Assembly: GCA_964479535.1 (NCBI GenBank)
Contig: CAYZMM010000004.1
Location: forward strand, 70,459 to 134,458
Source of the DNA: an uncultured Thermodesulfobacteriota bacterium
GTDB lineage: Bacteria; Desulfobacterota; DSWW01
Reading direction: 5' to 3'
DNA: 64,000 nucleotides
The translations under genes and the position numbers were made by a program. The notes beneath the pieces were generated by a model. The model had not been told where the DNA came from and did no database searches. It worked only from the letters and a program-made list of their open reading frames with translations. Below, in pieces: positions 4,696-44,597 of the stretch. The stretch's first letter is position 1. Every line of letters starts with the position of its first letter.

Positions 4696-4765
4696 GCAAG
4701 GTTCACTCGATCGTCTTCTGATCGAAGTTCCTGTATTTCCCTCTCCGACCATTGGGCCCGATAAA

Positions 4766-11670: not shown

Positions 11671-11813
11671 TTCCCGGCCTCTCCCCCGGTCCTCTCGGGT
11701 CACGAGACGGAGATCCTAGCAGACTCGGGCGACTTGCCACAAATCTGAGCCTTGGGTTAATCTAATCGTTTCATTCGATCGATAAGAAACGGTGAGGAAG
11801 GGGAGAGACGAGA

Positions 11814-12017: not shown

Positions 12018-12092
12018 CCCGACCCCTGTGAGGGTTCCGGTCCGGCCCTGCCGTGTGGATGAATCTTTGGTTCAGGAGACCCGAACGGGATC

Positions 12093-12740
12093 ATGCCGAA
12101 CACAGAAGACCGCCGCGACCCCTGTGAACGAGTGAAGAGGGCCATGCAAGCTGTCGGCAGCGACCTGCGTGAATCGATGAAGCAGATCCTCGAGGCCCTG
12201 GAACAGCGGAACGGAGCCGAGGCCGGGGAGATCCCCACCCGGCTCGAGGACGTTCGTGAAAAGGAGGACACGCTGAAGGAGCTCTGCCTTCAGATCCTCG
12301 GGGAAGCGAGTGGAAGCACCCCCGAACTCCGATGGACGGGCTGCGCACACAACATCCTGACCCTGATGTCCAAGGTCTCCAGGGAGATCGGAATCCTTGT
12401 TCAACAGATAGGCAGGATCCACCAGGGGCCTGAACTGCCGATCGGTGAAGACCTGCCCGACATGGCCAGACTGGCCGCCTGGATGCTCGACCAGAGCATC
12501 CGGACCGCCCTCGACCCCGACGCAGAGAGCGCACGCAGGGTGATGGAGGAGGACTCTTCCCTGGACCAGCGCAAGGAGGATTTCGCAAGGCGCGCGATCC
12601 TTCTCGTCAACGAGTATCCGGAGAGCTCGCAGCCCGTGGTTCCCTACGTCCTCGTATCCCGCCACCTGGAGAGAATCGGGGACCACGCCAGCCACATCGC
12701 CGAAGAGGTAGCGTACTACCTCGAGGACGCCGCTGCATAG
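12093..12740 (+). CDS. PhoU-domain phosphate-uptake regulator homolog
   Basis: The C-terminal RIGDHASHIAEEVAYY motif is diagnostic of PhoU, and two PhoU repeats are present. Confidence 0.75.
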   Translation: MPNTEDRRDPCERVKRAMQAVGSDLRESMKQILEALEQRNGAEAGEIPTRLEDVREKEDTLKELCLQILGEASGSTPELRWTGCAHNILTLMSKVSREIGILVQQIGRIHQGPELPIGEDLPDMARLAAWMLDQSIRTALDPDAESARRVMEEDSSLDQRKEDFARRAILLVNEYPESSQPVVPYVLVSRHLERIGDHASHIAEEVAYYLEDAAA

Positions 12741-23601: not shown

Positions 23602-26600
23602 TCATGCCAGCTCGTCGAGAAGGGCCTTCGCCTCCTTCAGGTCGCGGGTATCGAGGCCCTCGGTGAACCAGTCGTAGACAGGTGCGAGTAGATCGCGGGC
23701 CTCTTGCCTGCGGCCCTGCTTCCGCCACAGGCGGGCGAGGCCCGTCGCGGCACGAAGCTCATAGGATTTCGCGCTCTGGCGCCGCGCTACCTCGAGCGCA
23801 TCGCGGAAGGACGCCTCCGCCCCTTCCGGGTCGGCAGGCGTACGAGCGAGAACCAACTCGGCCTTTACGCGATGCAATTCCGCCTCGCCCCAGTGTTCGC
23901 CGGTCTTCCTCACGAATTCCAGTTCCTCCGCGGCGGCGGCAAGCCCTTCCTCCACTTGCCCTGCCTTCCTGTGTGCTCCGGCCAAGAGGGCAAGATACCA
24001 CGACGATCCCACCACTGCCCCCCTGGCCCGCATACCCTCGATAACAGAGCGCATTCCGGCGATTCCCTCCTGCAGATCGCCCTGCTCAGCGAGAGCCGCG
24101 CCGCGAAAGCCGGCTCCGAATGCCAGATACGAAGGAAACCCCTGCTCGCTCGATAGGGCGATCAGCGTTTCTGCTGTCTCAAGGGAGGCCTTCGACTCGC
24201 GACGAAACATGTGGACGATACCGAGACCGAGGAGGGCAGTTCCCTCACTGAAGGCATGGGAGAGTTCCCGGGCAAGGGCGAGGCCCTGCCGGGCTCTTGT
24301 CAGGGCCTGATCCGCGTACCCGAACGGGAACAGCGTCCAGCTGAAGAAAAGGAGCCCCCATATGCCAACATTGGCTGTGGGCTTGAGGTATTCGTGGCCC
24401 CGGTGCTTCTTGGGGTCGTAGAGGCGGAGGAGCTCTTCGAGATGTTCCCGGGCCTCGTAAAACTCTCCCCGATAGAAGGATGCCACGCCCATGCCGAAGA
24501 GCGCACGCAGGAGTTGTCCCGGGTCGTGTGACTCGCGGGCCACACCGAGCAGTTCCTCGGCGAGCAATTGCGACTTGTCATGCTCAGCACGAGCGATTTG
24601 GACCGTCCGCAGTCCGTTCAACGCCGCAAACAACTGAGAAGCGTCCCCCAGGCACCGGGCGAGATCTCGGGCGCGCACATACGCCTGCTCCGCTTCCGCG
24701 GACGCCAAGCCCTCGATCACGAGCAAAGCCTGGCCGAGTGCGGACTGCACGACCAGCTCCAGCTCGTCCCGCTCCCGGGTGTCGGACAGGGTCTTCAGGA
24801 GTTCGAGAGCCTGCCTGAGCCGGGCGATAGCCTCGCCGTACGCCGAGCGCGCCACCGCCTGCTCACCGGCCAGCCGCAGGTACTCGACAGCCTTGGGCGT
24901 GTTCGCGCTCCGGCCGTAGTGATGGGCCAGTTCCTCGTAATGGGCGTCGAGCGCCTGAGGGTTGAGAGCCTCGATGGCCTGCCCGGTGCGCTCGTGCAGC
25001 ACGCCCCGGCGCTCCCGGAGTAGCGACCCGTACGCCACTTCCTACGTGAGTGCGTGCTTGAACGTGTACTCCGGGTCCGGAAAGGCCGGCCGCTCGTAGA
25101 TGAACTCCGCTGCCTGCAGATGCGAGAGCTCTCTGGAGAGATACTCCTCGGCCTCTCCGGCCACGGCGCGGATGAGGCCCAGGGAGAACTCCTTGCCGAT
25201 CACGGCCAGGGTCTGCAGCAGGTCCTTCTCCCGGGAAGGCAGCCGGTCGATGCGTGCCCCGATCACCCCCTGAACCGTGGCCGGGATGTGGAGTTCTGTC
25301 GGGGATCTCTTCAGACGGTAATGACCCGGCTCCCCTGCGAGCACCCCTTCCTCGACGAGCGTCTGCACCAGCTCCTCCAGGAAGAAGGGGTTTCCCTGGG
25401 TCTTGGAAAGGATGAGCCGGTCCAGGGCCTCCCGCTCTTCTCCCGCCCCTTCGCCCAGAAGGGCACCGAGCAGCTCCCTTGACTCCTCGGCTCCGAAAGG
25501 ATCCAGCCTGAGCTGCGTGTAGCAGGTCCTGCTCCCCCAGCCGTGCCCGTACTCGGGCCGGTAGTTGACCAGCAAGAGGAGCCTCGCCGTGGCCACACTG
25601 TCGACGAGCACGTCCAGGAAGGCCTGCGTCTCGGAGTCGATCCAGTGGAGATCCTCGAAGAGGAGAACACAGGGCTGGTTGAGGGTCTCCCGCACCAGCA
25701 CGCGTTTCACCGCCTCCAGGGCCCGCTGCCGCCGGATCTGCGGGTCCATCTGCTCGAGGGAGCCCGTCCTGTCTCCGATGCCGAGGAGGGTGAAGAGATA
25801 CGGCAGGGTGTCCTCGAGCGTGCGGTCCAGGGCGAGCACGGTCCCGGTGACCTTCTCCTGCCTCCGGCGCTCGTCGTCTTCGATCCGGATTCGGAAATAG
25901 CCCTTCAGAAGTTCGAGCAACGGCAGGTAGGCGTATGCCTTGCCGTGGGAGACCGAGAAGCCCTCGAGCACGCGGCAGCCGCTCGTAAGCTGCTCTTTGA
26001 ACTCGTAGAGGAGGCGCGACTTGCCCACACCCGCCTCGCCCAGCACTGCCACGATCTGCCCGCGGCCCGCCCGGGCTGCCTCCCAGGCGCGCTCAAGCTC
26101 TCCCATCTCCCGCCGCCGGCCCACGAAGCGCACAAGCCCTCGCCTCGCGGCTACCTCCATTTTCGTTCGCAGGGGGCCCACGCCCTGCAGCTCGAAGACA
26201 CGCAGCGGTTCCTGCACGCCCTGCACGTTGAAGCGGCCCAGATCGCTGAGGCGGAGCGCCGCGTAGCACGCCCGCTGCGCATGGTCCTCGTGGGCAATGG
26301 GCGCACCGAACAGCGCCATGATCCCGTCGCCCGTGTACTGGTTCACGGTTCCTTCGAAGCGGTGGACCCCATCGGCCAGGATCTGGAAGAAACGGTCGAG
26401 GATGCGGTGCCACTCCTCCGGGTCCACCTGCTCGGCCAGCTCCATGGACCCCTTCACGTCGGCGAAGAGGACGGTCACCTGCTTCCGCTCCCCATCCAGT
26501 GCGGACCCGGACTGCAGAATCCTGTCGGCCAGGTGTTTGGGCGTGTAAGACTGAGGCTGCAAGTGGTCTATCGTGGCGGCTTCAACAGGCTTTCTCAGGT

Positions 26601-26742
26601 CGTGGCCGCATCTATCACAGAACCTGCTTTCCGGTGTATTCAGGTTTGCGCATTGAGGGCAGGAGAGTTCCAGTTTGCTCCCGCACGCCTTGCAGAAGGT
26701 GGCCCCCTCTCTGTTTTCGGCGTGGCAAGTGGGGCACTTCAT
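23602..26742 (-). pseudogene. Zn-ribbon - cyclase - AAA/STAND - TPR paralog 2, disrupted by an in-frame TAG at 25039-25041 and an in-frame deletion of about 243 bp in the cyclase domain
   Basis: The two ORFs 25042..26742 and 23602..25038 share a frame and are separated only by TAG, where copy 1 has CAG. The cyclase domain lacks roughly 81 aa present in copies 1, 3 and 4. Confidence 0.75.
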
Positions 26743-27732: not shown

Positions 27733-30700
27733 TCACGTAAGCTCCTCGAGAAGGGCCTTCGCCTCCTTCAGGTCGCGGGTGTCGAAGCCTTCCGTGAACC
27801 AGTGGTAGACCGGTGCGAGCAGCTCGCGGGCCTTTTGCTTGCATCCCTGCTGCTGCCATAGGCGGGCGAGGCCCGTCGCCGCTCGAAGCTCATATGATTT
27901 CGCGCTCTGGCGCCGCGCTACCTCGAGCGCATCGCGGAAGGACGCCTCCGCCCCTACTTGGTCGGCGGGTGTATGACCGAGAAGCAACTCGCCTTTTACG
28001 CGATGCAACTCTGCCTCCATCATGCGCTCGTCGGTCTTTGTCACGAATTCCAATCCCTGCGCCACGAGAGCGACACCTTCCTCCACTTGTCCTGCCTTCC
28101 TGTGTGCCCGGGCCAAGAGGGCAAGAAACCACGAAGATCCCAGGACTGCGCCCCTGGCCCGCATACCCTGGAGAACCGACCGCATCCCGGCGATTCCCTC
28201 CTGCAGCTGTCCCTCCTCGGTGAGCGCCTCGAGGCGAAGCCAGGCTCCGAATGCCAGATAGTACGCAAACCCATGCTCGCTTGAGAGATTGATTACAGCC
28301 TCTGCTGTCTGAAGAGATGCCTTAGAGTCGCGCCGCTCCAGGTAGATACGGCTAATACAGAATAGGGCAACTGACTCACTGAAGGGATCAGAGAGCTCCC
28401 GCGCCAGGGCGAGCCCCTCCAGGGCCCTCTTGAGGGCCTGGACCGGGTAACCGAGGGAGACAAGCGTCCAGCTGAAGAAGAAGAGGCCCCATACGCCAAC
28501 ATTCGCTGAGGCTGAGAGGTAATCATGGCCCCGATGTTTCTTCGGGTCGTAAAGGCCGAGGAATTCTTCGAGATGCTCTCGGGCCTCCGAAAACTCTCCC
28601 CGATAAAAGGATGTCCCGCTCATGGCATGCAGCGCGCGCAGGAGTTGTCCCGGGTCGCGTGACTCGCGGGCCACACGGAGCAGTTCCTCGGCGAGCAGAC
28701 GAGCTTTGTCATGCTCAGCACGTACCTGTTGGCCCGCCCGCAGTCCGGTCAACGCTGCAAACACCTGAGAAGCATTCCCCAGGCACTCAGCGAGATCCCG
28801 GGCGCGCAAATACGCCTGCTCTGCTTCCACGGACGCGAAGGTCTCGGTTACGTCCAAGGCCTGGCCGAGTGCGGACTGCAGGGACAGCTCCAGTTCGTCC
28901 CGCTCCCGGGTCTCGGGCAGGGTCTTCAGGAGTTCGAGAGCCTGCCTGAGCCTGTCGATCGCCTCCCCGTAGGCCGAGCGCGCCACCGCCTGCTCACCGG
29001 CCAGCCGCAGGTACTCCGCGGCCTTGGGCGTGTTCGCACTCCGGCCGTAGTGGTGGGCCAGCTCCTGGTAGTGCTCGTCGAGTGTTTCGCTGTAGACCTT
29101 CTCGATCGCCTGACCCACCCTCTCGTGTATTGCCCCGCGCCTCTCTCGCAGCATGGACCCGTACGCCACCTCCTGCGTGCGTGCGTGCTTGAACGTGTAC
29201 TCCGGGTCCGGAAAGGCCGGCCGCTCGTAGATGAACTCCGCTGCCTGCAGATGCGAGAGCTCTCTGGAGAGATACTCCTCGGCCTCTCCGGCCACGGCGC
29301 GGATGAGGCCCAGGGAGAACTCCTTGCCGATCACGGCCAGGGTCTGCAGGAGGTCCTTCTCCCGGGAAGGCAGCCGGTCGATGCGGGCCCCGATCACCCC
29401 CTGAACCGTGGCCGGTATGTGCAGCTCCCCCGGGGATCTCTTCAGACGGTAATGACCCGGCTCCCCTGCAAGCACCCCTTCCTCGACCAGGGTCTGCACC
29501 AGTTCCTCCAGGAAGAAGGGGTTTCCCTGGGTCTTCGCCATGATGAGCCGTTCGAGCTCGGTCCGATCTGCGCTTGCCTCATCCCCCAAGAGGGCTGTTA
29601 GTAGCTCCCGAGCCTCCACATCCCCCAGTGGATCCAGCCGGAGCTGTGTGTAGCAGGTCCTGCTCCCCCAACCGTGCCCGTACTCGGGCCGGTAGTTCAC
29701 CAGGAACAGGAGCCTGGCCGTGGCCACGCTGTCGACGAGCACGTACAGGAAGGCCTGGGTCTCGGAGTCGATCCAGTGAAGATCCTCGAAGACGAGCACA
29801 CAGGGCTGGTCGAGGGTCTCCCGCACCAGCACGCGCTTCACGGCCTCCAGGGTCCGCTGCCGCCGGATCTGTGGGTCCATCTGCTCGAGCGGGCCGGTCA
29901 GGTCTCCGATGCCCAGGAGGGTGAAGAGATACGGCAGGGTGTCCTCGAGCGTGCGGTCCAGGGTCAGCACGGTCCCGGTGACCTTCTCCCGCCTCCGGCG
30001 CTCGTCGTCTTCTAGGCCGATTCGGAAATACCCCTTCAGAAGCTCGAGCAACGGCAGGTAGGCGTATGCCTTGCCGTGGGAGACCGACAAGCCCTCGAGC
30101 ACGCGGCAGCCGCTCGTAAGCTGCCCCTTGAACTCGTAGAGCAGGCGCGACTTGCCCACACCCGCTTCGCCCAACACCGCCACAATCTGGCCGCGGCCCG
30201 CCTGGGCGGCCTCCCACGCCCGCTGGAGCTGCTCCATCTCCCTCTGCCGGCCCACGAAGCGCGAAAGCCCCCGTCTTTCGGCTACCTCCATTTTCGTTCG
30301 CAGGGGGCCCACGCCCTGCAGCTCGAAGACCCGCAGCGGTTCCTGCACGCCCTGCACGTTGAAGCGGCCCAGATCGCCCAGCCGGCAGAGGCCCTCGACC
30401 ATCTTGGCCGTGTGCTCGCTGAGATAAGCCTTTCCCGGCTCCGCCAGTTGCTCCATGCGCGCCGCAAGGCCCACGGTCTGGCCCTGGGCCGTGTAGTCCA
30501 TCCGCAGGTCGTCGCCGATCTTACCGACCACCACTTCGCCCGAGTTGAGCCCCATCCTGACCGAGAACCGAAGCCCCTTCTCCCGTTTCAACTCTGCCGC
30601 GTACCGCTGCAGTCCCTCGCTCAGGCGGAGCGCCGCGTAGCAGGCCCGCTGAGCGTGATCCTCGTGAGCGATCGGCGCCCCGAAGAGCGCCATGACACCG

Positions 30701-31116
30701 TCGCCGGTGTACTGGTTCACCGTTCCCTCGAAACGGTGCACGCCGTCCGCAAGGATCTGGAAGAACCGGTCGAGGATCCGGTGCCACTCCTCCGGGTCGG
30801 TCTGTTCAGCCATTTCCATCGAGCCCTTTACGTCTGCGAAGAGGACGGTGACCACTTTCCGTTCGCCCTCGATCGAGCTGCGGGTCGTGAGGATCTTTTC
30901 GGCAAGGTAGTTCGGGGTGTAGGACCGAGGTTGGGAGTAGTCGACGGCGGGCGTTGCTACGGGCTTGGTCAGGTCATGGGCGCAATCGCCGCAGAACTTA
31001 TCGTTCGGAAGAACTTCAGCCCCGCACTGAGGGCAGGCGAGGACGAGTCTCGCCGCACATGCCCGGCAGAACTTCTTGTTATCCGGGTTGTCCGTCTGGC
31101 ACTGAGGGCATTTCAT
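27733..31116 (-). CDS. double Zn-ribbon - class III nucleotidyl cyclase (CHD) - AAA/STAND NTPase - TPR protein, paralog 3 (intact, 1127 aa)
   Basis: Two CPxC...CxxC ribbons are followed by a full CHD domain, a P-loop NTPase and long TPR-like C-terminal helices. No interruptions are seen. Confidence 0.85.
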   Translation of the reverse strand: MKCPQCQTDNPDNKKFCRACAARLVLACPQCGAEVLPNDKFCGDCAHDLTKPVATPAVDYSQPRSYTPNYLAEKILTTRSSIEGERKVVTVLFADVKGSMEMAEQTDPEEWHRILDRFFQILADGVHRFEGTVNQYTGDGVMALFGAPIAHEDHAQRACYAALRLSEGLQRYAAELKREKGLRFSVRMGLNSGEVVVGKIGDDLRMDYTAQGQTVGLAARMEQLAEPGKAYLSEHTAKMVEGLCRLGDLGRFNVQGVQEPLRVFELQGVGPLRTKMEVAERRGLSRFVGRQREMEQLQRAWEAAQAGRGQIVAVLGEAGVGKSRLLYEFKGQLTSGCRVLEGLSVSHGKAYAYLPLLELLKGYFRIGLEDDERRRREKVTGTVLTLDRTLEDTLPYLFTLLGIGDLTGPLEQMDPQIRRQRTLEAVKRVLVRETLDQPCVLVFEDLHWIDSETQAFLYVLVDSVATARLLFLVNYRPEYGHGWGSRTCYTQLRLDPLGDVEARELLTALLGDEASADRTELERLIMAKTQGNPFFLEELVQTLVEEGVLAGEPGHYRLKRSPGELHIPATVQGVIGARIDRLPSREKDLLQTLAVIGKEFSLGLIRAVAGEAEEYLSRELSHLQAAEFIYERPAFPDPEYTFKHARTQEVAYGSMLRERRGAIHERVGQAIEKVYSETLDEHYQELAHHYGRSANTPKAAEYLRLAGEQAVARSAYGEAIDRLRQALELLKTLPETRERDELELSLQSALGQALDVTETFASVEAEQAYLRARDLAECLGNASQVFAALTGLRAGQQVRAEHDKARLLAEELLRVARESRDPGQLLRALHAMSGTSFYRGEFSEAREHLEEFLGLYDPKKHRGHDYLSASANVGVWGLFFFSWTLVSLGYPVQALKRALEGLALARELSDPFSESVALFCISRIYLERRDSKASLQTAEAVINLSSEHGFAYYLAFGAWLRLEALTEEGQLQEGIAGMRSVLQGMRARGAVLGSSWFLALLARAHRKAGQVEEGVALVAQGLEFVTKTDERMMEAELHRVKGELLLGHTPADQVGAEASFRDALEVARRQSAKSYELRAATGLARLWQQQGCKQKARELLAPVYHWFTEGFDTRDLKEAKALLEELT

Positions 31117-31175: not shown

Positions 31176-31365
31176 TGTTCTAAATGCTAGAAAATAAAGA
31201 TAAAGGAGTCAATAATTGTTTTGCGTCAGGTAGGGCGGGGGCCGTCTCGATGTGAGATGATGGCAAATTTCAACCGATTTGTTTTTTCCCGTATGTTTCA
31301 AATACTTGTGTTCATCTTGATGGATTGGCACGGCCGTTGCTCTACCCTGATCCAACAACACCCTC
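31176..31365. repeat. divergent-promoter module, copy A; homologous to 38968..39236, with a degenerate third copy near 22240..22290
   Basis: GTTCTAAATGCTAGAAAATAAAGATAAAGGAGTCAATAATTG and GATGGATTGGCACGGCCGTTGCTCTACCCTGATC are conserved between the copies. Confidence 0.6.
31326..31341 (+). promoter_or_regulatory. sigma54 (RpoN) -24/-12 promoter, TGGCACG-N4-TTGCT, oriented toward the MMPL-CNB gene
   Basis: A perfect match to the sigma54 consensus with correct spacing. The identical element recurs at 39191-39206. Confidence 0.55.
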
Positions 31366-31548
31366 TTCTCGCTGAACGAGGCGATGGAGCACTCCATCCT
31401 CCTGGGATTCTGAGCATTGGAAGTTCCCCCGGGGCCTTCCGCCGATTCACCGCAGGGCGGTGGATCGCGTTGACACCGGATTCCGGACTCCCCTATACTT
31501 CACCCCAGGCGGGCACCTCTCATCTTCTCTCAAGAAGATGGAGAACGT

Positions 31549-34296
31549 ATGGACCGATTCTACGGTTGGATCGTCCGCAGGCCGAAGCTGATTCTCCTCC
31601 TCCTCGTTCTTCCCACAGCATTCCTTGCCCTTCAGGCGCGACACATCCGGTTGGACAGCTCCATCGAGAGCCTCCTGCCGAGGGAAGACCCTGAAAAGAA
31701 GTACTACGAAGAGATTCGTCAACTCTACGGCAGTGACGAGATCGTCGTGATCGGCCTCATGGCGGACAACGTCTACAGGCCGGAAACCGTTCAGAAGATC
31801 GAGCGGATCACGGAAAAGATCCGAGAGATGCCCGAGGTGAAGAGCGTTGCGAGCCTCACCAACGCGCAGGATGTGATCAAATCCGTTGCCGAGGACACCC
31901 TGCTCATCCCGGAGATTCCCACCACCGAGGAAGGATGGGAAGAGGTCAAGGGCAGGGTCGCCGAGCACCCCGTCTATCTGAAGAACCTGGTCTCCCCCGA
32001 TGGTCGCGCGGCCGCGATCAACGTCACCTTCCTGGAGAGTGTGTCGGACGAGGCGTTCCTGCGCCGCGGGATCGACGAGAGAATTCAGAAGATCCTGGAC
32101 GCGGAACAGGGGCCGGAGAAGCTCTACTACACGGGGCTTCCTCGCTTCAAGGTCCACGTGGTCCAATCCATGCGGGGAGATTTGAAGTCCTTTCTCCCCC
32201 TGGTGCTGCTCTGCATCGCTGTCGTCATGTTCGCAAGCTTCCGCTCTCTGCGTGGGGTGATCCTGCCTGCGGTTACCTCCGTCGTAGGCCTGACCTGGAC
32301 CCTCGGGATCATGGTGCTGGCCGGAAGTTCCCTGAGCCTGGGGAGCATCACACTTCCCCCTTTGCTCCTCGTCCTGGGCACGGTCTACTCCCTGCACGTG
32401 GTGGCCGAGTACTACGAATTGGCCCGGCCCGGCACGCCGGCGGGCGAGGTGGTCCTCGAGACCCTCAGAAAGACCGGAATGCCCGTCCTGATTACGGCAC
32501 TGACCACCGCCCTGGGCTTCGCGGCCCTGGCCGTGAACCGCATCGTCAGTATCCGGGAGATGGGCCTCTTCTCCGCAGCAGGCATCCTGTTCGCCTTCCT
32601 GCTCTCGGTGACCCTTGTGCCGGCGATCCTCTGCCTGTTGCCGCTGCCCAAGAGGCGGGCAGACCGGTTTTCGCCCGTGTTGACCTCGACACTTCAACGG
32701 ATAAGCCGCCTGGACATCCGATACCGCAGGCCGATCATCCTTGCGGGAATCCTCATTGCGGTCCTCGCAGCCTGGCAGATTCCCTCGATCATGGTGGACT
32801 CGAACTTCCAGTCCTTCTTCCGCAAAGACGACCCGATCCGCAAGGCCAGCGATGTCATCAACGAGCATCTTGCCGGAAGCTCTGCCTTCTACGTCACCAT
32901 CGACGGCGAGAAGACGGGCCTCGTGAAGAAATGGGACACCTTGAAGCGAATCAAAGAGCTTCAGCTCTACATCGACGCTTTGCCCGGAATCGAGAAGACG
33001 ATTTCCCTGGTGGACTACTGCGAGATCCTGGACAGAGGGATTCAGGCCGTGCCCCCCTGGGAGGAACCGCCCGAGCCGCAGGAGCCGGAGCCCCAGACGA
33101 CCTTCTGGGAGAATCCTTCCCAGCTCGACGGCGTCATGCAGCTGGTGTTCCTGAATGCGAAGAGCATATCCGGCGTTGCGAACCATCCCGTGTTCTCGCG
33201 GACGAACATCATCGTTCGCACCTCCCTCACCCACGCCAGCGATGTGGCCGCCACGGTGGAGAAGATCGAGGCGTTTGCCGCCGAGACCTTTCCCCCGGAG
33301 CTCACCGTGAGGACCACCGGCGAGTTGATCCTTCACACTCGCACGAGCGGCGACATCGTGAGGGGGCAGATTCAGAGCCTGGGGCTTGCCGCCGGGATCA
33401 TCTTCCTCGTCATGTCGACCATGTTTCTCTCCGTTCGGATCGGCCTGATCGCCATGGTTCCGAACCTCTTCCCGATCATGGTCTTCTTCGGGCTCATGGG
33501 CGCCTCAGGGGCCGTCCTCAGCCTGAGCACGAATATCATTGCCGCGATTGTCCTGGGGATCGCCGTGGACGATACCATCCACCTCATGTCACGCCTGAGT
33601 TCCCAGGTCAGGGCAACGGCCGACCGGGAAGAGGCCCTCCTTCACACCTTCTCCACCGTGGGGAAGCCCGTCTTCTACACGTCCGTGATCCTGTTCCTGG
33701 GCTTTCTCACGCTCTGCGTCTCCTCCTTTGTGCCGATCCGGGAATTCGGCATTCTGGCCGCCTTCACGATGATCGTGGCTCTTGGCGCAGATGTGGTCTT
33801 GTTGCCCGCCATCCTGTCGACCACGCGGTTCATCACCCTGTGGGATCTGCTCTATCTCAAGCTGGGCCGGGATCCGCACAAGGTCATTCCCCTCTTTGAC
33901 GGACTGAGGCCCTTGCAGGCCAAGATCGTCACCCTCATGGGCGAACTCAAGACCTTCACCCACGGCGATGCGATCGTCCGTCAGGGGGATATGGGCAATG
34001 AAATGTTCGTTCTGCTCAAAGGCACGGCGGAGATTCACATCCAGGCCGAAGGCCGGTCCAGACGCATTGCCGGGCTCGAGAGAGGGGACGTCTTTGGAGA
34101 AATGGGACTGCTTCGCCATCATGAACGCACGGCAGACGTCGTTGCTTCCGAAGATGTGGAAGTCCTGGCCGTAAACGAGCGCTTCCTCTCGCGCATCAAG
34201 CGCCGGTACCCGCGAATCGGCGCCCAGATCTTCTTCAATGTGGCAAAGATCCTCAGTGACCGCCTCGAAGAGGCAAGAAAGGTCCCCTCGGTATAG
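31549..34296 (+). CDS. RND-superfamily MMPL/HpnN-like exporter (two SSD/12-TM halves) fused to a C-terminal cyclic-nucleotide-binding (CAP-family) domain
   Basis: 915 aa with MMPL-type TM/periplasmic-loop topology. The last roughly 120 aa carry FGEMGLL...R..TADVVA, the cNMP phosphate-binding cassette. Confidence 0.75.
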   Translation: MDRFYGWIVRRPKLILLLLVLPTAFLALQARHIRLDSSIESLLPREDPEKKYYEEIRQLYGSDEIVVIGLMADNVYRPETVQKIERITEKIREMPEVKSVASLTNAQDVIKSVAEDTLLIPEIPTTEEGWEEVKGRVAEHPVYLKNLVSPDGRAAAINVTFLESVSDEAFLRRGIDERIQKILDAEQGPEKLYYTGLPRFKVHVVQSMRGDLKSFLPLVLLCIAVVMFASFRSLRGVILPAVTSVVGLTWTLGIMVLAGSSLSLGSITLPPLLLVLGTVYSLHVVAEYYELARPGTPAGEVVLETLRKTGMPVLITALTTALGFAALAVNRIVSIREMGLFSAAGILFAFLLSVTLVPAILCLLPLPKRRADRFSPVLTSTLQRISRLDIRYRRPIILAGILIAVLAAWQIPSIMVDSNFQSFFRKDDPIRKASDVINEHLAGSSAFYVTIDGEKTGLVKKWDTLKRIKELQLYIDALPGIEKTISLVDYCEILDRGIQAVPPWEEPPEPQEPEPQTTFWENPSQLDGVMQLVFLNAKSISGVANHPVFSRTNIIVRTSLTHASDVAATVEKIEAFAAETFPPELTVRTTGELILHTRTSGDIVRGQIQSLGLAAGIIFLVMSTMFLSVRIGLIAMVPNLFPIMVFFGLMGASGAVLSLSTNIIAAIVLGIAVDDTIHLMSRLSSQVRATADREEALLHTFSTVGKPVFYTSVILFLGFLTLCVSSFVPIREFGILAAFTMIVALGADVVLLPAILSTTRFITLWDLLYLKLGRDPHKVIPLFDGLRPLQAKIVTLMGELKTFTHGDAIVRQGDMGNEMFVLLKGTAEIHIQAEGRSRRIAGLERGDVFGEMGLLRHHERTADVVASEDVEVLAVNERFLSRIKRRYPRIGAQIFFNVAKILSDRLEEARKVPSV

Positions 34297-34341: not shown

Positions 34342-35169
34342 ATGAAGATCACCTTCTATGGCACCCGAGGCTCCACGCCCATACCTGAACCGGATTACTT
34401 CCAGGTCGGCGGCAACACACCGTGCGTCCTGTTCACTTCCGACAACGGAAGAATCGCCATCTTCGACGCGGGCACGGGAATCCGCAAGCTGGGCAACGAA
34501 CTGCTGGCTCGCGGGCACCAGCAGTTCGACAATATCTTCATCGCCCTCTCACATACCCACTGGCATCACATTCAAGGGTTCCCCTTCTTTCTCCCCGCAT
34601 ACGATCCGGCCCGCCACTTCACCATCACCATTATTGGAAGAGAGCGAGAGACGAAGAACCTCGAGGACATCTTTTCGACGCAGATGCAGCGCGAGTTCTT
34701 CCCCGTTCCCCTGGAGAAGATGGGGGCGAAGATGACCTTTTCCACACCCGAGACAACCCGTTTTACCACGCCGATTACAGGAAACAAGGTGATTACGCTC
34801 AGGCACAACCATCCTGGTGGGGCCTACAGCTACCGCGTCGAGGGTTCCGGAAAGACCTTCGTCTACTGCACGGATGTGGAACACACGGATGGGATCGATC
34901 CGAACATCGTCGCCCTCGCCAGAGAGGCCGACCTTCTGGTCCATGATGCACAGTTCACCCCGGAGGAGCTGAAGGAGAAGAAAGGCTGGGCCCACAGCAG
35001 TTGGGAGCAGGCGGTGGAGGTGGCGGAGCAATCCGGCGCAAAGAGACTGGCGCTCTTTCATCACGATCCGGAACACAGCGACCCCTTTCTCTTCCGAATG
35101 GAGAAAGCGTGTCAGAAGCGGTTCGCAGAGGCCTTTCTTGCCCGAGAGGGAATGGAAATCGAGTTATAG
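34342..35169 (+). CDS. MBL-fold metallo-hydrolase (atypical HTHWHH motif); candidate cyclic-nucleotide phosphodiesterase by context
   Basis: SHTHWHH, a CTDVEH motif and a C-terminal HHDPEH follow the MBL pattern. A GGGAGG RBS precedes the ATG at 34342. Confidence 0.55.
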   Translation: MKITFYGTRGSTPIPEPDYFQVGGNTPCVLFTSDNGRIAIFDAGTGIRKLGNELLARGHQQFDNIFIALSHTHWHHIQGFPFFLPAYDPARHFTITIIGRERETKNLEDIFSTQMQREFFPVPLEKMGAKMTFSTPETTRFTTPITGNKVITLRHNHPGGAYSYRVEGSGKTFVYCTDVEHTDGIDPNIVALAREADLLVHDAQFTPEELKEKKGWAHSSWEQAVEVAEQSGAKRLALFHHDPEHSDPFLFRMEKACQKRFAEAFLAREGMEIEL

Positions 35170-35502: not shown

Positions 35503-37359
35503 TTATCCTTCCGAAGGTAAATCTGCCAGCTCCTTCCTAACCTTCTCCGGCTCAATCAGGGCACCCAATCGCTCGAGAATCTTCACGGCATCGGCCAGGT
35601 ATTCGCGGGTCTTTTCCATGTTTCCTTGCATCTTGTAGAAGCGGCCCATAGACGCGTAGGCTAGGGCGAGTTCATTCTCGGCCTTGTTTTCCTTTGCCAG
35701 TTCCACACTTCTCTCAAAATGGGGAAGACCTTCTTCCGAACCGGTTGCCACGGCAATTTCTCCAAGCAGTCGGTAAGCCCATGGGAGGAACACGCGCCCG
35801 TTGCGGCGGGATTGCAGTTCAAGATGTACGTCAAGCATTTCCCTCGCTTTATCGTGCTCTTGTTCCGAACAGAACACTTCTCCTAGAATGGCGGTGGAGA
35901 AGAGTTCGGCCACTACGAATCGCGAGCTTCTGAACAGAGGGATAAGAGTCTCGATCACCTCCGGTTCTTTCCCTACATTGCCCGTTCGGCAACGGGCCCA
36001 GGCCAGGCATGTTATCGCCAGAGCCATGTCTCCCGGCGTGGAAGCCTTTTGCACCGCCAACTCGCCATATGCTATCGCTTGCTGGAGATCCCATTTGAAC
36101 GTGTGCGATACGCATAGTGTGAAGTAAGACCATGAGCTGTTGCTGTTATCCGCGTAGTTCTCAGCGATCCTGCATGCCTCTTCACCCAGCTTTTCCGCCT
36201 CACTCCACCGTCCGAGAAATGCGTTCGTCCATGTTGCTGCATTCAACGCCCACACCGAAGTACGGAGGTTGAACTGTTTGTCCATCTGGGCGAAGCACTT
36301 CTCCTTCAATGAGGACACCGCCTCCAGATCGCCCAACCACATATGATCCCATTCCATAATGCAGTACGCATACCCTGCATCTTCAGCATTTCCCGCCGAC
36401 TCACACAGTTCGGCCGCTTTACTCAGTGTAGATATGCCTTGCCGTGGGAGACCGAGAAAGCTTCCAGTACCCGGCATCCCTTAGCCAGAGGTGTCTTGAA
36501 CTCATAGACAACGCAACAGGCCTCGTTTCGCCGACACCTCCAAGGGGGTCCTTATCGGCCCTACGCCCTGAAGCTCGTATACACGCAGCGCCTCCGAGGT
36601 TCCCGCGATTTTCGACTCCCCCAGGTCCAGGAGTTGGAAAACCCCCTCCACGAGCCGCGCCGTGTGTTGGCTCAGATAGGCGTGGCCCGGCTCTGCGAGT
36701 TGCTCGACTCGCTGCGCTAAACCCACCGTCTGCCCCTGAGCCGTGTAGTCCATGCGCAGGTCATCTCCGATCCTCCCCACCACCACTTCCCCGGAATTCA
36801 GGCCGAGACGGGCCGAGAAGTTCAAGCCCCGCTGCAAGCGAAGCTCTTGCGCGTACTTTCTAAGTTGCTCACAGAGTGCCAGAGCCGAGTAGCAGGCCCT
36901 CTGCGCATGGTCTTCGTGCGCGATAGGCGCACCGAAGAGCGCCATGATCCCGTCACCCGTGTACTGGTTGATGGTCCCTTCGTAACGGTGGACCCCATCG
37001 GCCAGGATCTGGAAGAAACGATCAAGGATCCGGTGCCACTCCTCGGGGTCGACCTGTTCGGCCAACTCCATGGACCCTTTCACGTCGGCAAACAGCACCG
37101 TCACCTGCTTCCGTTCGCCTTCAAGTGCCGACTTGGTCTGGAGGATCTTGTCGGCGAGATATTTGGGGGTGTAGGACTGAGGCTGAGAGTAGTCGATCGA
37201 AGGGGCCTCCGCGGGCTTTCTGAGATCATGGCCGCATTTCTTGCAGAATTTGCCATCCGCGGGCGTCTCCGACCCGCATTTGGGGCAACGGTATTCGATG
37301 GGATTCCCGCAGTCGATGCAAAACTCAGCATCGTCAGGGTTCTGTTTGACAAAGCCCGT
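35503..37359 (-). pseudogene. Zn-ribbon - cyclase - [AAA domain deleted] - TPR paralog 4; no start codon ahead of the Zn-ribbon
   Basis: Cyclase ORF 36502..37104 and TPR ORF 35503..36477 lie in different frames with no P-loop region between them. The Zn-ribbon coding sequence (37105-37359) follows the acyl-CoA ligase TAG stop in frame, without any ATG/GTG/TTG. Confidence 0.65.
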
Positions 37360-38937
37360 CTACTCTCCTGACAGGGTTTTCGCTTTGAGGGTTCTCTTGT
37401 CTACCTTTCCTGTGGGATTGATGGGCATGGAGTCAAGGAATCGGATATCCCGGGGACGCTTGTAGTCGGCCAGTTTGTCCTGGGTGAAATCGTGGAGTTC
37501 TTCGGCTGTGACCTTCTCGCCCGGCTTCAGTGCCACGAAGGCCAGTACGTCTTCGCCGAGCTCCGGATGGGGCTTTGCAACCACCGCGCACTGTCCCACA
37601 GCCGGGTGTTCGTACAAAACACTCTCCACCTCCAAGGAGTAGACGTTGAATCCCCCGCGGACGATCATGTCCTTCTTGCGGTCTGTGAAGTAGAGGTAAC
37701 CCTCGTCATCGCTCCGTCCCATGTCTCCGGTGTAAAGCCAGCCGTCTCGTAGGGTCTGCGCGGTAGCTTCCGGGTTCTTGTAGTATTCCTTCATGACGTT
37801 CGGCCCACGGAGGACGATCTCTCCCACGTCTCCAGGGTCCAGGTTGTGTCCCTGGTCGTCCACGATCCGGAATTCCTGTTCCGGTGCCCACGGATGGCCC
37901 ACCGATCCAAGCTTGGTGTGTGTTTCAGCCGCATTCAGGGTTGTCCCACCGGTCCCCGCCTCTGTCAGGGCATAGGTCGTGTATACCTTGATACCCGGCC
38001 ACGCAGCGTGCACTCTCCGGATGACTTCCTCGGGCATGGCCGCAGCGCCCGAGATGAGCGACCGAAGGGAGGAGGTGTCGAACTCTCTGAATCGAGGGTG
38101 ATTCAAGAGGAAGACAAACATGGCGGGTGCACCGCCGTAGCTCGTGGGCCGTTCCTTCTCGATGGTCTCAAAGGTCTTCACCGGGTCGAAGGTTTCCTCG
38201 AGGATGAGTACCGGCGCGGAATAGAGCCACAACATCATGACCGAGCTGCAGCCGCTCGAGGTGAAAAAAGGGTAGCAATTCTGGGTGCGGGGCACTCCGT
38301 GATGAAGGCGTGACAAACCTAGGGAAGCGCCGATCAATCGGCCACAGGCAACCTTGTTCGCCTGGGTGAGTACAACCCCCTTCGGAAGGCCCGTGGTCCC
38401 GCTTGTGTACAATATGTCGGCTTCATCGTCCGGGCCGATGGAGACTGCCGGTGGAGAGCCCGAGGAAGCCATCCGCTTCGTGAACGATTCGACCCAGTCC
38501 GGCAGTTCCTGTCCCTCCTTTTCGATTCCCACATAGCCCTTGATGTTCAGCCGCTCCCGTATCTGATCGACCAGGGGAAGGAAGTCGTGCCCTCCGATCA
38601 TCCAGTCCGCGTCCGAGTGCTCCACGATGTACTCCACTTCCCGCGGGACCAGCCGGACGTTGATCGGGACGAACACGGCACCCAGCTTGTGGATCGCGAG
38701 GTACGTGTAGTAGCACTCGACGCTGTTGGTGAGCATGAACGCGACCTTCTCACCCTTCTTCACACCCAGGTCTGAAAGTCCGGCCGCGAGCCGTGTCGAC
38801 TGCTCGTCCATCTCCCCCCAGGTGTGACGAAGCCACTCCCTGGTCCGGTACGAGAAGGAAACAAAGGCCTCCCGGTCCGGGAAGTCGTCCACGTTTCGCT
38901 CCAGCAATTCGCGAATGGTCTCCGGTGCTCGCCACAT
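37360..38937 (-). CDS. acyl-CoA synthetase (AMP-binding enzyme, medium-chain/aryl type)
   Basis: 525 aa with the YTSGTTGLPKG adenylation motif. It ends on a TAG stop. Confidence 0.8.
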   Translation of the reverse strand: MWRAPETIRELLERNVDDFPDREAFVSFSYRTREWLRHTWGEMDEQSTRLAAGLSDLGVKKGEKVAFMLTNSVECYYTYLAIHKLGAVFVPINVRLVPREVEYIVEHSDADWMIGGHDFLPLVDQIRERLNIKGYVGIEKEGQELPDWVESFTKRMASSGSPPAVSIGPDDEADILYTSGTTGLPKGVVLTQANKVACGRLIGASLGLSRLHHGVPRTQNCYPFFTSSGCSSVMMLWLYSAPVLILEETFDPVKTFETIEKERPTSYGGAPAMFVFLLNHPRFREFDTSSLRSLISGAAAMPEEVIRRVHAAWPGIKVYTTYALTEAGTGGTTLNAAETHTKLGSVGHPWAPEQEFRIVDDQGHNLDPGDVGEIVLRGPNVMKEYYKNPEATAQTLRDGWLYTGDMGRSDDEGYLYFTDRKKDMIVRGGFNVYSLEVESVLYEHPAVGQCAVVAKPHPELGEDVLAFVALKPGEKVTAEELHDFTQDKLADYKRPRDIRFLDSMPINPTGKVDKRTLKAKTLSGE

Positions 38938-38967: not shown

Positions 38968-39236
38968 GTTCTAAAACATAGAAAATAGAGATAAGAGTGT
39001 CAATGATTTCTTTGTGTTCGGAAAGGTGTGGGCGCCGTGAAGGGGGATGGCAGCACATGTCAATCGAGTGGGCTTTTGGATAGTTCCTTTTTGCTCGTAA
39101 AGAAAATATACGAACCGTCGGCAGTTGCAGGCTCCTCCGCATTCTTCTAAAAGCTATACACTTTGGGGGTTTATGTTTGGCCTGATGGGATGGCACGTCC
39201 GTTGCTCTACCCTCTGATCAAACAAGAAACCCAAAC
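38968..39236. repeat. divergent-promoter module, copy B (homolog of 31176..31365)
   Basis: On the minus strand it gives TTGACA-17-TATGTT upstream of the acyl-CoA synthetase. On the plus strand it gives the sigma54 element. Confidence 0.6.
39191..39206 (+). promoter_or_regulatory. sigma54 -24/-12 promoter, TGGCACG-N4-TTGCT, oriented toward the small ORF and the PAS kinase
   Basis: The core is identical to the element at 31326-31341. Confidence 0.5.
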
Positions 39237-39271: not shown

Positions 39272-39478
39272 ATGAAAGCGAGTAGAAACACCATCCGACT
39301 CCGAGGGCCGGCTGATGTTTCGTCGCCCTGGGAAGAGGTGAAGGAGTGGGCGAGAAGGAACGTCACGAACGATAGGGTTGCTGAGGTCAGCCTGTCACTG
39401 GCGGCCGCTGCTTCGCTATGCTATCTGGGAGCCAGGATCTTCGTGGGTGTGCAGAACTACGTGATGTATGCCTATTAG
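39272..39478 (+). CDS. hypothetical small protein (68 aa) with a C-terminal hydrophobic segment
   Basis: A GGGAGGG RBS sits 8 nt before the ATG. It lies about 55 nt downstream of the sigma54 element. Confidence 0.35.
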   Translation: MKASRNTIRLRGPADVSSPWEEVKEWARRNVTNDRVAEVSLSLAAAASLCYLGARIFVGVQNYVMYAY

Positions 39479-42834: not shown

Positions 42835-43548
42835 TCAGGAGGATCTTCCGGCCGACGACTGTGAGATCTCCAGGCCCACCAGCCGTGCGACGAGCACCAC
42901 GAGATAGATCTGGCCGATGATCGCTTCCAGGACGGAAAGGTTCTTCGCGACCGCCGTCCCTCCTGTGAGGTCACCGTACCCGAGGGTGGTCAGGGTGGTG
43001 AAGCTGAAGTAGAGGGCCTGGCCGGCGCCGGTTCCGTAGAAGGCCCTCGGGTCTCCCTCCGGGATGACCTCGCCGCCCGCGAGGAATGCCCCCGGATCGA
43101 GGAACTCCAGCAGGGAATAGAGGGTCGCGAAGATCACCCCGAGAAGGAGGTACGAACAGAGGGCGGCGCAGATCGTGTCGAAGGTCACCCGCTTCGCCTT
43201 GAGCACGTAGGAGAGGATGGTGCCTCCGATGTAGAGGAAGAAGAGGATGGCAAGGATGTGTCGCGCCTCGGCATAGGAGGCGGCCGGGTCGAAGTGGTCG
43301 AGCCAGATCAAGGCCACCGCAGGCACCAGGAGCGCAAGTGCGGTCAAGAGAGAGGACAGCTTCCCGCTCCCCGAGTAAGCGCCCACGATCAACATGGCGG
43401 TGGCCAGAAGATCATAGAGGGTGAAGCCCCGATCATCCGATCCCAGGAAGGGGCCCAAGAAGATGAAGACCATCAGGAAGACCAACAGAAAGAAGAAGCG
43501 CCTTTCTCTCGAAAACACCCAGTTCTTCACGATCGATCCGAACGGCAT
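42835..43548 (-). CDS. potassium channel family protein (pore-loop TTLGYGD)
   Basis: It contains the selectivity-filter sequence TLGYGD, flanked by TM helices. Confidence 0.7.
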   Translation of the reverse strand: MPFGSIVKNWVFSRERRFFFLLVFLMVFIFLGPFLGSDDRGFTLYDLLATAMLIVGAYSGSGKLSSLLTALALLVPAVALIWLDHFDPAASYAEARHILAILFFLYIGGTILSYVLKAKRVTFDTICAALCSYLLLGVIFATLYSLLEFLDPGAFLAGGEVIPEGDPRAFYGTGAGQALYFSFTTLTTLGYGDLTGGTAVAKNLSVLEAIIGQIYLVVLVARLVGLEISQSSAGRSS

Positions 43549-43700: not shown

Positions 43701-44597
43701 GTGGAAGGCACAGCTGTCCGGATTGACGACGATCCGCTTTCGGTCGCAGGGGAAATGAAACGCACAGAAGGCAACCCACGCATCGGGATACCGGCCTACT
43801 TCACCTCTCACGCCTGGGTGGAGGCACGATTCGAAAAAGCGGGCCTTTTCGATACGAGAAAGGGCCGGTTCCTGTTCAGGGCCCTGGGGCCGTTCTTCCG
43901 CGGCCTCGGATTTCTGGGCCCTGCGGTCCGGTTTCACAACGAGTACCTGTTCGTCCGTCACTACGCTGTGGAGGCGAGGCTGCGGGCGATTCGGCCTACC
44001 AGCATCGTCGAGATCGGGTCCGGACTTTCACCCCGGGGGGTCGCCTTCGCCTCGGCGGATCCGGATCTCCGGTACATCGAGGTGGACCTTCCAAACATGG
44101 TGGCGGCCAAGAGGAAGGCGCTGCATGGCTTACAGTGTCCCCGGAACTACTTCCTCGGCGCGGCGGACCTCTTGGCCGAGGATTTCCTGGAAGCCCTGCC
44201 CGAGGCACCCAGGCCGGGGGACCGCCTGGCCGTCGTCACCGAAGGGGTCACCGACTATTTCAACATGCCGGAGAAGCGCAAAGCCTTCCGGAACATCCGC
44301 TCCCTGCTGGAAGCACACGGGGGCGGCCGCTATCTCCTGGACATCTATGCCCGCGAGCACTTCCCTCGTCCCGCCTGGCTCACGAACGCGTTTGTCCTTA
44401 CCTTGGGTCGCCTGGTGGGTCGCTCCTTTGACGATCAGCTCTTCGACCGGGTGGACGATGCCTGCCGGTTTCTGACCGGCTGCGGCTTCGACGAGGCCGG
44501 CGAACTGGACCTCGCGGAGCTGAACACCTCGGCCTACCAGCCGCCCCTCGCGGACTGCACCTGCCGGATCGTGGAGGCGACGGTCCCTCACTTGTAG
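43701..44597 (+). CDS. class I SAM-dependent methyltransferase (LCM/TcmP-like)
   Basis: A VEIGSGLSPRG motif I is present. The start is uncertain, either 43701 or 43755. Confidence 0.55.
   Translation: MEGTAVRIDDDPLSVAGEMKRTEGNPRIGIPAYFTSHAWVEARFEKAGLFDTRKGRFLFRALGPFFRGLGFLGPAVRFHNEYLFVRHYAVEARLRAIRPTSIVEIGSGLSPRGVAFASADPDLRYIEVDLPNMVAAKRKALHGLQCPRNYFLGAADLLAEDFLEALPEAPRPGDRLAVVTEGVTDYFNMPEKRKAFRNIRSLLEAHGGGRYLLDIYAREHFPRPAWLTNAFVLTLGRLVGRSFDDQLFDRVDDACRFLTGCGFDEAGELDLAELNTSAYQPPLADCTCRIVEATVPHL

Follow-up and report, generated by a model that had tools for sequence, protein, structure and literature searches.

Can the export of lipids across a bacterial envelope be set directly by a cyclic nucleotide? 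The question is raised by one gene in a 64-kb stretch of DNA from an uncultured Thermodesulfobacteriota bacterium (contig CAYZMM010000004.1; the whole stretch is called the window here, and coordinates given without a locus number are positions in it). An earlier note had read this gene, at 31549–34296, as an exporter of the MMPL/RND type joined to a cyclic nucleotide-binding (CNB) domain, and Pfam searches, hydropathy and a structural model concur with that description. With a probability of roughly 55%, we consider the protein to be an RND exporter of lipids or other hydrophobes, driven by the proton-motive force, whose activity would be set allosterically by a cyclic nucleoside monophosphate (cNMP) on the C-terminal CNB domain; a locally encoded cyclase would supply the signal and a hydrolase of the metallo-beta-lactamase (MBL) fold would end it. 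The gene and its parts are as follows (TM, transmembrane helix; ORF, open reading frame).

31540–31543, + strand: ribosome-binding site GGAG, 5 nt before the ATG
31549–34296, + strand: RND (MMPL/HAE3-type) transporter with C-terminal CNB domain, 915 aa, ATG start, uninterrupted ORF
31549–33816, + strand: RND core, residues 1–756, delimited by hydropathy, DSSP of the model and column conservation in 118 homologues
33817–33915, + strand: linker from TM12 to the CNB domain, residues 757–789 (TT.IITLWDLLYLKLG.DPHK.I.LF.GLRP), with a short helix at 764–772 in the model
33916–34281, + strand: CNB domain, residues 790–911, with aA helix, 8-strand beta-roll and aB/aC helices
34093–34146, + strand: phosphate-binding cassette (PBC) FGEMGLLRHHERTADVVA, residues 849–866, with canonical G850, E851, R860, T861 and A862

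A GAGATG block at the ribosome-binding site and the N-terminus MDRFYGWIV are kept in orthologues. The MMPL family (PF03176) matches the protein with E = 6.8e-40 (137.5 bits against a threshold of 20.5) in two stretches, one per half of the RND core, which reflect its internal duplication. Kyte–Doolittle hydropathy agrees on 12 TM helices with an AlphaFold2 model that draws on 118 homologues (mean pLDDT 82.3, pTM 0.73). The core runs from TM1 through a periplasmic alpha/beta domain (residues 31–207), TM2–6, TM7 and a second periplasmic domain (415–605) to TM8–12, with TM12 modelled as a helix at 728–758 that ends near residue 756. The N-terminus is basic and inside, and with 12 spans the CNB domain is therefore cytoplasmic; its boundary lies outside the membrane, after TM12. 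The intramembrane polar residues Y280 and H283 of TM4 and G670, D674 and H678 of TM10 are invariant or nearly so among the 118 homologues, as is D675, and TM4 lacks the Asp of the GxxxD motif. Judged by the alignment, the invariant polar residues of TM4 and TM10 are likely what a working proton-coupled pump should show.

The transporter belongs to the lipid- and hydrophobe-handling branch of RND proteins and is not an HpnN orthologue. Its best NCBIfam model is TIGR00921 of the HAE3 family (TC 2.A.6.7), with 252 bits, under the cut-off of 352, and with mainly the N-terminal half covered. The term 'HpnN-like' used by the earlier note is apt at the level of superfamily and fold: like HpnN of Burkholderia multivorans and Rhodopseudomonas palustris (5KHN/5KHS), the protein is a 12-TM RND transporter with two periplasmic domains and an SSD-like TM2–6 (a region that matches the Pfam Sterol-sensing and Patched sterol-sensing domain, or SSD, profiles), and it shares similarity in both sequence and fold. 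The term fails at the level of function-specific models, as the two HpnN equivalogs score 142 against a cut-off of 751.85 (TIGR03480) and 65.4 against 1100 (NF052374); moreover, identity to HpnN is ~15% over the fold alignment, and HpnN has no cytoplasmic CNB domain. The NCBIfam models of BstA, ActII and MmpL3 likewise score far under their cut-offs, the last with 18 bits against 1400.

In a Foldseek search the model matched MmpL4 and MmpL5 best (E ~4e-26, TM-score to target 0.76–0.79), then MmpL3, NPC1/NPC1L1 and HpnN, all with probability 1.00 over ~800 columns; across MmpL3, MmpL4 and MmpL5, which share the MMPL Pfam family with the transporter, E values range from ~1e-24 to 4e-26 and TM-scores to target from 0.72 to 0.79. 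Identity to these mycobacterial proteins is 15–17%, however, and the transporter has neither an MmpS/AcpM partner nor a coiled-coil periplasmic insert. MmpL3 has a C-terminal cytoplasmic extension behind TM12; the cytoplasmic tail of the transporter, unlike that of mycobacterial MmpL, is a folded CNB domain. No CNB-type domain is present in the solved RND structures among the Foldseek matches.

The C-terminal domain itself is matched by cNMP_binding (PF00027) at residues 801–884 with E = 1.4e-19 and 70.2 bits against a cut-off of 27.5, in keeping with the domain call of the earlier note. DSSP of the model gives an aA helix at 788–796, a beta-roll at 799–876, aB at 877–886 and aC at 888–911. 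When the isolated domain was compared with the PDB by phmmer, the matches were the cGMP-dependent kinase of Plasmodium (PfPKG, ~8e-27), PKA RII, CRP, SthK (E ~2e-11) and Epac. The motif that had drawn attention to the domain, FGEMGLL...RTADVVA, occupies residues 849–866, and this cassette, FGEMGLLRHHERTADVVA, aligns without gaps with functional cGMP sites of PfPKG (FGERALLYDEPRSATIIA). The ribose-contacting Gly-Glu and the phosphate-contacting Arg-Thr-Ala are all in place, at the same spacing as in the sites of PKG, PKA and CRP. Among the 118 homologues G850 is found in all 118, R860 in 115 and E851 in 73. On this evidence the CNB domain is real and apparently ligand-competent.

If a ligand on this domain is to act on transport, the effect has to pass through the segment that joins the two modules. 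The linker at 757–789 is the best-conserved segment of the protein, with a mean top-residue frequency of 0.83 in the 118 full-length homologues compared with 0.57–0.79 elsewhere, and W765, L772, G773, P776, I780, F783 and L786 are invariant. Conservation above that of both the TM bundle and the CNB core is the signature expected of a coupling element, as far as an alignment can tell. One orthologue, 86% identical (locus L054 of the comparison set), carries an in-frame stop at the invariant Trp765 (ITL*DLLYLKLG, ~12296–12298). The stop would part the RND core from the CNB domain; either an error of sequencing or a natural truncation may explain it.

That stop falls exactly in the linker, and it is the one observation in favour of reading the fusion as an artefact in which mis-assembly, a frameshift or read-through has joined two genes. 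The chance of this is negligible. The window holds a single clean ORF, and the segment that would be the false junction is the best-conserved part of the protein. MMPL and PF00027 occur together in 120 of the 120 best homologues (56–100% identity), which come from independent assemblies and sources; 80 metagenome loci were retrieved with the same architecture, and relatives at ~30% identity still match through the CNB domain. We also searched 1.84 billion cluster representatives (50%-identity clusters) by HMMER with residues 700–915 as the query. Since the query spans TM11/12, the linker and the CNB domain, full coverage is possible only for fused proteins. At E ≤ 1e-30 the search yielded 286 representatives. 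Of the top 150, at least 126 are RND-CNB fusions (86 full-length and 40 fragments spanning both modules; the others are 2 short unclassifiable fragments and 22 proteins that either have several CNB domains or are short and CNB-only). The fusion occurs independently so broadly that the artefact is refuted, and its presence in all 120 homologues, in the ~30%-identity relatives and in these representatives means that it has been under long-term selection.

The architecture is therefore, on the strength of these searches, widespread and old, not rare. The sources of the relatives are labelled as metagenome-assembled genomes (MAGs) of Binatia, Deltaproteobacteria/Desulfobacterota and Methylomirabilota. 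The word 'unusual' in the earlier note does not hold as a statement of frequency; the fusion is unusual only in that the literature searched does not describe it. Variations on the theme were also seen. Two tandem CNB domains follow the RND core in 15 of the 86 full-length fusions among the top 150 (~1150–1310 aa; for example P0159, P0162, P0175, P0178 and P0184). A Rhizobiaceae MAG (L002) encodes two tandem ~400-aa proteins (2671–3876 and 3961–5220) with a C-terminal CNB domain ~41% identical to that of the transporter and an N-terminal ~270 aa without a Pfam match.

The conservation of E851 in 73 of 118 homologues divides the family in two. The canonical cassette, FGEMGL..R..ERTAD, is present in these 73, the transporter included, and a Glu-to-Val variant, FGVTSL.RSQER[VIM][ST]D, with a hydrophobic residue after the Arg, is present in 44 of the 118 (~37%). 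Cross-tabulation of cassette type against neighbouring genes in the retrieved loci (27 Glu-to-Val, 36 canonical) gave the following counts.

Glu-to-Val loci (n = 27): DUF1329 27, cyclase 3, MBL 0, SMC_N/AAA_23 0
Canonical loci, the type of the transporter (n = 36): DUF1329 1, cyclase 9, MBL 3, SMC_N/AAA_23 6

The difference in cyclase adjacency, 9/36 compared with 3/27, is too small to decide anything alone. The DUF1329/LolA-like gene stands beside the Glu-to-Val RND-CNB gene on either strand (in many of loci L011–L083; L005, at 10793–12097, is an example). Three further arrangements were noted in these loci. A sigma54 activator is often also found ~1.4 kb away from the Glu-to-Val genes, and in some loci (L014–L016, L026, L069) two RND-CNB paralogues flank the DUF1329 gene. 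A ~575-aa SMC_N/AAA_23 ATPase gene lies directly downstream of canonical-cassette genes, on the same strand, in 8 loci (L003 10835–12550, L004 10776–12515, L028, L034, L047, L067, L077 and L081).

DUF1329 is the AmeB component of AmeABCD, an HAE3 efflux system for monoterpene export (PMC6394551). In Castellaniella defragrans this system consists of the HAE3 RND protein AmeD, the DUF1329/LolA-like AmeB, the DUF1302 outer-membrane protein AmeA, and AmeC, and exports monoterpenes and hydrophobes (PMC6394551). The transporter is also an HAE3-type RND protein, and its sister subfamily adjoins a DUF1329 gene as AmeD adjoins AmeB, although AmeD, at 787 aa, has no CNB domain. The pairing of the sister subfamily with DUF1329, together with the role of AmeB, therefore supports hydrophobe export by the family. 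The canonical subfamily has this gene in 1 of 36 loci and therefore works without an AmeB-like partner; in the 64-kb window tblastn (E < 1e-6) detected no DUF1329 homologue and thus no partner of the AmeABCD kind.

The existence of two cassette types bears on what the CNB domain does. CNB folds can take other ligands, namely haem, 2-oxoglutarate, aromatic acids or nucleosides in the case of CooA, NtcA, CprK and trypanosome PKA. A census of the fold documents subfamilies whose ligand is not a cNMP (PMC2246266). The domain of the RND-CNB family might accordingly bind some other small ligand, or serve as a constitutive module for structure, oligomerisation or docking. The Val in place of the ribose-contacting Glu in 44 of 118 homologues, where the domain is kept without a universal canonical site, would fit such a role, as would the constant pairing of this subtype with DUF1329 (27 of 27) and the ~84% of family loci that have no cyclase nearby. 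The transporter and the other canonical members hold all canonical contacts at canonical spacing, however; cyclases are locally enriched and commoner with the canonical subtype; and a purely structural role would not obviously need the cassette Arg in 115 of 118 proteins. Overall we regard this explanation as unlikely, if the most serious of the alternatives to be weighed here, and it is less likely for a canonical member such as the transporter.

For control by a cNMP, the neighbourhood offers both a candidate source and a candidate sink of the signal. Four paralogous class III cyclase genes of the STAND type, identified by Pfam, form an array over ~18 kb in which the transporter sits, and an MBL gene follows it.

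27733–31116, - strand: divergent class III nucleotidyl cyclase (STAND type), 1127 aa, with double zinc ribbon (DZR), cyclase, AAA_16 and TPR; apparently intact
19290–22121, - strand: cyclase-AAA_16-TPR paralogue (Pfam, tblastn)
23602–26742, - strand: apparently split or degenerate copy, with a DZR-cyclase(partial)-AAA_16 ORF at 25042–26742 and a TPR ORF at 23602–25038 (Pfam)
35503–37104, - strand: apparently split Guanylate_cyc-TPR gene, with a cyclase ORF at 36502–37104 and a TPR ORF at 35503–36477, convergent with the MBL gene and without AAA_16 (Pfam)
34342–35169, + strand: MBL-fold hydrolase (Lactamase_B_2; Apyc1-like/PhnP-like), 275 aa, 45 nt downstream of the transporter

The intact cyclase at 27733–31116, which is divergent from the transporter gene, is a candidate source of the cNMP signal, and the transporter is the only CNB-domain protein detected in the window. 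Aligned with CyaB and Cya2, this cyclase keeps both metal-binding Asp residues and the Arg. Its purine-specificity site, which carries Lys in adenylyl and Glu in guanylyl cyclases, is occupied by Gln, and its transition-state Asn is replaced by Gly. The same Gln and Gly are common to the paralogues in the window where these were checked; in the partial cyclase of the 25042–26742 ORF the match spans only profile positions 7–88 of 183. In their class III domain, AAA_16, TPR and non-Lys (Gln) purine site the window cyclases appear similar to Rv0386-type cyclases of M. tuberculosis, which are cyclase-ATPase-TPR proteins of STAND architecture, but they differ in the N-terminal double zinc ribbon, in having no detected LuxR helix-turn-helix and in the Gly for the transition-state Asn.

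Because the genome is cyclase-rich, distance bands around the gene in 88 loci served as an internal control. Cyclase matches occur at 0.061 per kb within 0–2 kb of the gene, 0.015 at 2–5 kb and 0.009 at 5–10 kb. The arrangement varies among loci and may be divergent upstream, same-strand downstream or convergent downstream. The DZR-cyclase-AAA_16-TPR architecture recurs divergent from the orthologue in L003 and beside the MBL gene in L088, and in L001 the orthologue is directly followed by an intact Guanylate_cyc-TPR gene.

The MBL gene is probably co-transcribed with the transporter gene; a scan found no terminator-like site between the two on the + strand. Its product matches Lactamase_B_2 at 77 bits and is, from its family relationships, a candidate cNMP phosphodiesterase. 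The NCBIfam model NF041851 'cyclic nucleotide-degrading phosphodiesterase' gives a weak but near-full-length match (49 bits against a cut-off of 400), homologues carry precomputed matches to PF23023 (Anti-Pycsar_Apyc1), weak to moderate, and in 4 of the 6 contexts inspected a cyclase is close to the gene of this family. The order of MMPL-CNB followed by MBL recurs in L088, an independent assembly whose transporter is 81% identical, and in L089; in L088 the DZR-cyclase-AAA_16-TPR gene abuts the pair. The MBL-fold enzymes Apyc1 and YhfI hydrolyse cNMPs through an HxHxDH di-zinc site (PMC9117128). The window protein resembles them in its fold (Lactamase_B_2) and in the Anti-Pycsar_Apyc1 matches of its family; it differs from Apyc1 in being chromosomal, a member of a very abundant family and not phage-borne, and in having HxHxHH for HxHxDH. 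The last difference is due to a single-base substitution at codon 75 (34564–34566), which puts His for a metal-binding Asp and could be a sequencing error, an inactivation or altered metal chemistry.

These associations lead us to propose how the module could work. A cNMP bound in the phosphate-binding cassette would reposition the aB/aC helices of the CNB domain; this movement would pass via the linker at 757–789 into TM12; and TM12, packed against the proton-relay helices TM10 and TM4, would switch transport on or off. The adjoining STAND-type class III cyclase or cyclases would make the signal, with the transporter as the receptor arm of a three-part local module, and the co-directional Apyc1-like MBL hydrolase downstream would probably remove it. 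The direct ligand gating that the earlier note proposed would be the most economical reading, and the linker, the cyclase enrichment and the MBL neighbour strengthen it.

Several observations weigh against this proposal, and they concern all three parts. With its Gln and Gly substitutions the cyclase may be weak or give an unexpected product, and the Thr of the cassette, which does not discriminate between cNMPs, does not indicate which one would be bound. A cyclase is found within 2 kb in only ~16% of family loci, and with four paralogues in 18 kb, two of them apparently disrupted, chance adjacency is inflated in this window. None of the first 87 comparison loci has the MBL neighbour, the close orthologues L001, L007–L010 and L054 included. 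The assignment of the MBL protein is weak: part of it scores higher with RNase Z models, the JGI name for the family is PhnP-like phosphodiesterase, a Pfam search gave no PF23023 match for the window protein itself, and its motif is HTHWHH where 119 of 120 homologues have HTHWDH or close variants. The subfamily of the transporter, finally, is without the DUF1329 partner (1/36) that ties its sister to hydrophobe export.

A cyclase, a CNB protein and an Apyc1-like hydrolase side by side also recall anti-phage defence, and the locus could be a Pycsar-like abortive-infection module in which the product of a STAND sensor-cyclase triggers a membrane effector. PADLOC models of PycC match the cyclase domains (E = 5e-25) and PycTIR models match the CNB domain (E = 2e-16), the residue at the specificity site of the cyclase is non-canonical, and the MBL family has Anti-Pycsar_Apyc1 matches; the STAND NTPase-TPR architecture is, in addition, common among immune sensors. 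The PADLOC matches amount to generic domain homology, however; their scores are comparable to those of Pfam Guanylate_cyc and cNMP_binding, and no PADLOC model matches the MBL protein. The effectors known from Pycsar systems are small proteins of the CNB-TM or CNB-TIR type, whereas the transporter is a 12-TM RND protein with conserved relay residues and its cyclase is divergent and STAND-bearing. The family is large, mostly without an adjacent cyclase and often paired with a LolA-like gene, and the annotated neighbours show no mobile-element or defence-island signature. A defence role is thus very improbable.

The earlier note had also placed the gene behind a sigma54 promoter as a second layer of regulation. 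The upstream region contains two types of promoter element, and one of them has a second copy downstream of the transporter.

31470–31499, + strand: sigma70-type promoter TTGACA-N18-TATACT (11/12), ~50 nt upstream of the ATG
31326–31341, + strand: sigma54 -24/-12 box TGGCACGGCCGTTGCT, an exact TGGCAC-N5-TTGCW, ~208 nt from the ATG
31318–31365 and 39183–39232, + strand: near-identical copies of an extended sigma54 block of ~45 nt
39272–39478, + strand: small-protein ORF

GTTGACA is invariant in 7 of 7 aligned upstream regions of close orthologues (the window counted), CCTATACT is present in 5 of 7, and TTGACA is also present in L088. By this conservation, the sigma70-type element is the proximal promoter of the close clade, and it was preferred to the sigma54 box, which was ruled out as the main conserved promoter. 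Only 2 of the 7, the window and L001 (at -172), have the sigma54 box ahead of the gene, and across the family such boxes show no enrichment upstream of the gene (3/55 compared with 5/220 in controls). In the window, on the other hand, there are 2 exact TGGCAC-N5-TTGCW matches where 0.04 are expected, and 0 are expected for the 21-nt extended pattern. The conserved block, GGCACG..CGTTGCTC.ACCC..CTGATCAA, exceeds the -24/-12 consensus; it occurs twice in the window and, in related form, at 4532–4565 of L088. Such a pattern points either to duplication of a promoter module or to a sigma54 regulon under common control.

In L088, where the block has the same downstream extension as in the window, it is followed by a small TM ORF and then by the transporter. 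In L007 an exact box (10843–10858), homologous small ORFs and a PAS histidine kinase stand immediately downstream of the transporter, and in the window, ~5 kb downstream of it, come the second box, the small ORF at 39272–39478 and a PAS hybrid histidine kinase. Probably this is a clade-specific sigma54 module tied to the locus. Homologues of sigma54 activators (bacterial enhancer-binding proteins) were not found in the 64-kb window by tblastn. In the family they are enriched near the gene, being within 2 kb in 12 of 88 loci, with 0.052 matches per kb at 0–2 kb and 0.005 at both 2–5 and 5–10 kb. Transcription would start mainly from the sigma70-type promoter, with a probable extra sigma54 promoter further upstream. 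The exact box and its extended conserved block are probably functional, but with a distance of ~208 nt, presence in 2 of 7 orthologues and a conserved sigma70-type element nearer the gene, the second regulatory layer is plausible but secondary.

The small proteins directly behind the sigma54 block are ~53–70 aa long and have a W..[LV]K.WA[RK][RK] motif followed by one TM helix. Besides the window copy they are encoded at 10910–11071 and 11125–11337 of L007 and at 4714–4899 of L088. They adjoin the MMPL-CNB gene in L088 and L007, and the PAS histidine kinase follows them in the window and in L007. Judged from this placement they could be modulators of the pump.

With a kinase, four cyclases and an SSD in one locus, the transporter might itself be a sensor or transceptor like Patched or SCAP, in which the SSD senses a membrane lipid, the CNB domain integrates a cNMP, and the output is signalling to the STAND cyclases or to histidine kinases. 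The match of TM2–6 to the Sterol-sensing and Patched SSD profiles would agree with this, as would the surrounding signalling genes, namely the four STAND cyclases and, behind the twin sigma54 block, the PAS hybrid histidine kinase, and the PAS histidine kinase just downstream in L007. SSD likeness is, however, general to the MMPL/HpnN/NPC1 branch, and the bacterial proteins of this branch are genuine transporters. The residues of the proton-relay type in TM4 and TM10 are invariant, no output domain can be recognised besides the CNB domain, and the partner of the sister subfamily is a LolA-like periplasmic carrier, a component typical of exporters of the AmeABCD kind. We therefore think a sensor function improbable by a wide measure, and prefer an exporter under cNMP control.

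The annotated neighbours, which cover part of the ORFs of the 64-kb window, include the cyclases, the MBL hydrolase, a TPR protein, an AMP-binding enzyme, the histidine kinase and others; no hopanoid-biosynthesis (hpn/shc) genes are among them. Three further genes were recorded.

37360–38937, - strand: AMP-binding (acyl-CoA/AMP ligase-like) gene
42835–43548, - strand: small Ion_trans_2 K+-channel-like gene
43701–44597, + strand: LCM-type methyltransferase

The AMP-binding and LCM neighbours are only a hint of a link to lipid metabolism. Conserved synteny of these genes with L054 was considered and rejected: such genes are near both orthologues, but by tblastn they are 32% identical or undetectable.

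CNB domains are promiscuous fusion partners, and their fusion to an RND protein is in itself not shocking. As in the SthK and MloK1 channels, the sperm Na+/H+ exchanger SLC9C1 and predicted MFS-CNBD and ABC-CNB proteins, the C-terminal CNB domain of the transporter is joined to the last TM by a conserved linker; unlike in those proteins, the transport module is an RND pump. The CNB census of 2007 notes ABC-type fusions and includes no class of RND proteins (PMC2246266). In a 2023 review on how bacterial transporters are controlled post-translationally, RND pumps are described as controlled only via the small proteins AcrZ, YajC and WatS1, and CNBD fusions are listed for MFS proteins only, as uncharacterised (PMC10710835). 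No description of an RND-CNB fusion was found in the literature searched on MMPL, RND or HAE3 proteins with cNMP-binding domains. In the sources searched, a second-messenger-binding RND pump is thus without described precedent, and the family is large and unstudied.

These results lead us to speculate, tentatively, that the locus encodes the first second-messenger-gated RND pump. A STAND sensor-cyclase would produce the signal, possibly a non-canonical cyclic nucleotide because its active site has the Gln and Gly substitutions; the CNB-fused lipid exporter would remodel the envelope within seconds; and a co-transcribed hydrolase would reset the system. The sister Glu-to-Val subfamily would have been re-tuned to another ligand and to a LolA-like carrier. 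The two cassette subtypes with their mutually exclusive partners form a natural comparison for ligand specificity, and the linker between TM12 and the CNB domain is a defined, mutable coupling element between cytoplasmic signals and the RND proton relay. The arrangement of cyclase, RND-CNB protein and hydrolase is a directly testable circuit. RND transporters build and defend the envelope through the export of hopanoids, mycolates, siderophores and drugs. If the proposal is true, envelope lipid export would be switchable directly by a second messenger, and cAMP/cGMP signalling in cyclase-rich environmental bacteria would gain a concrete membrane effector.

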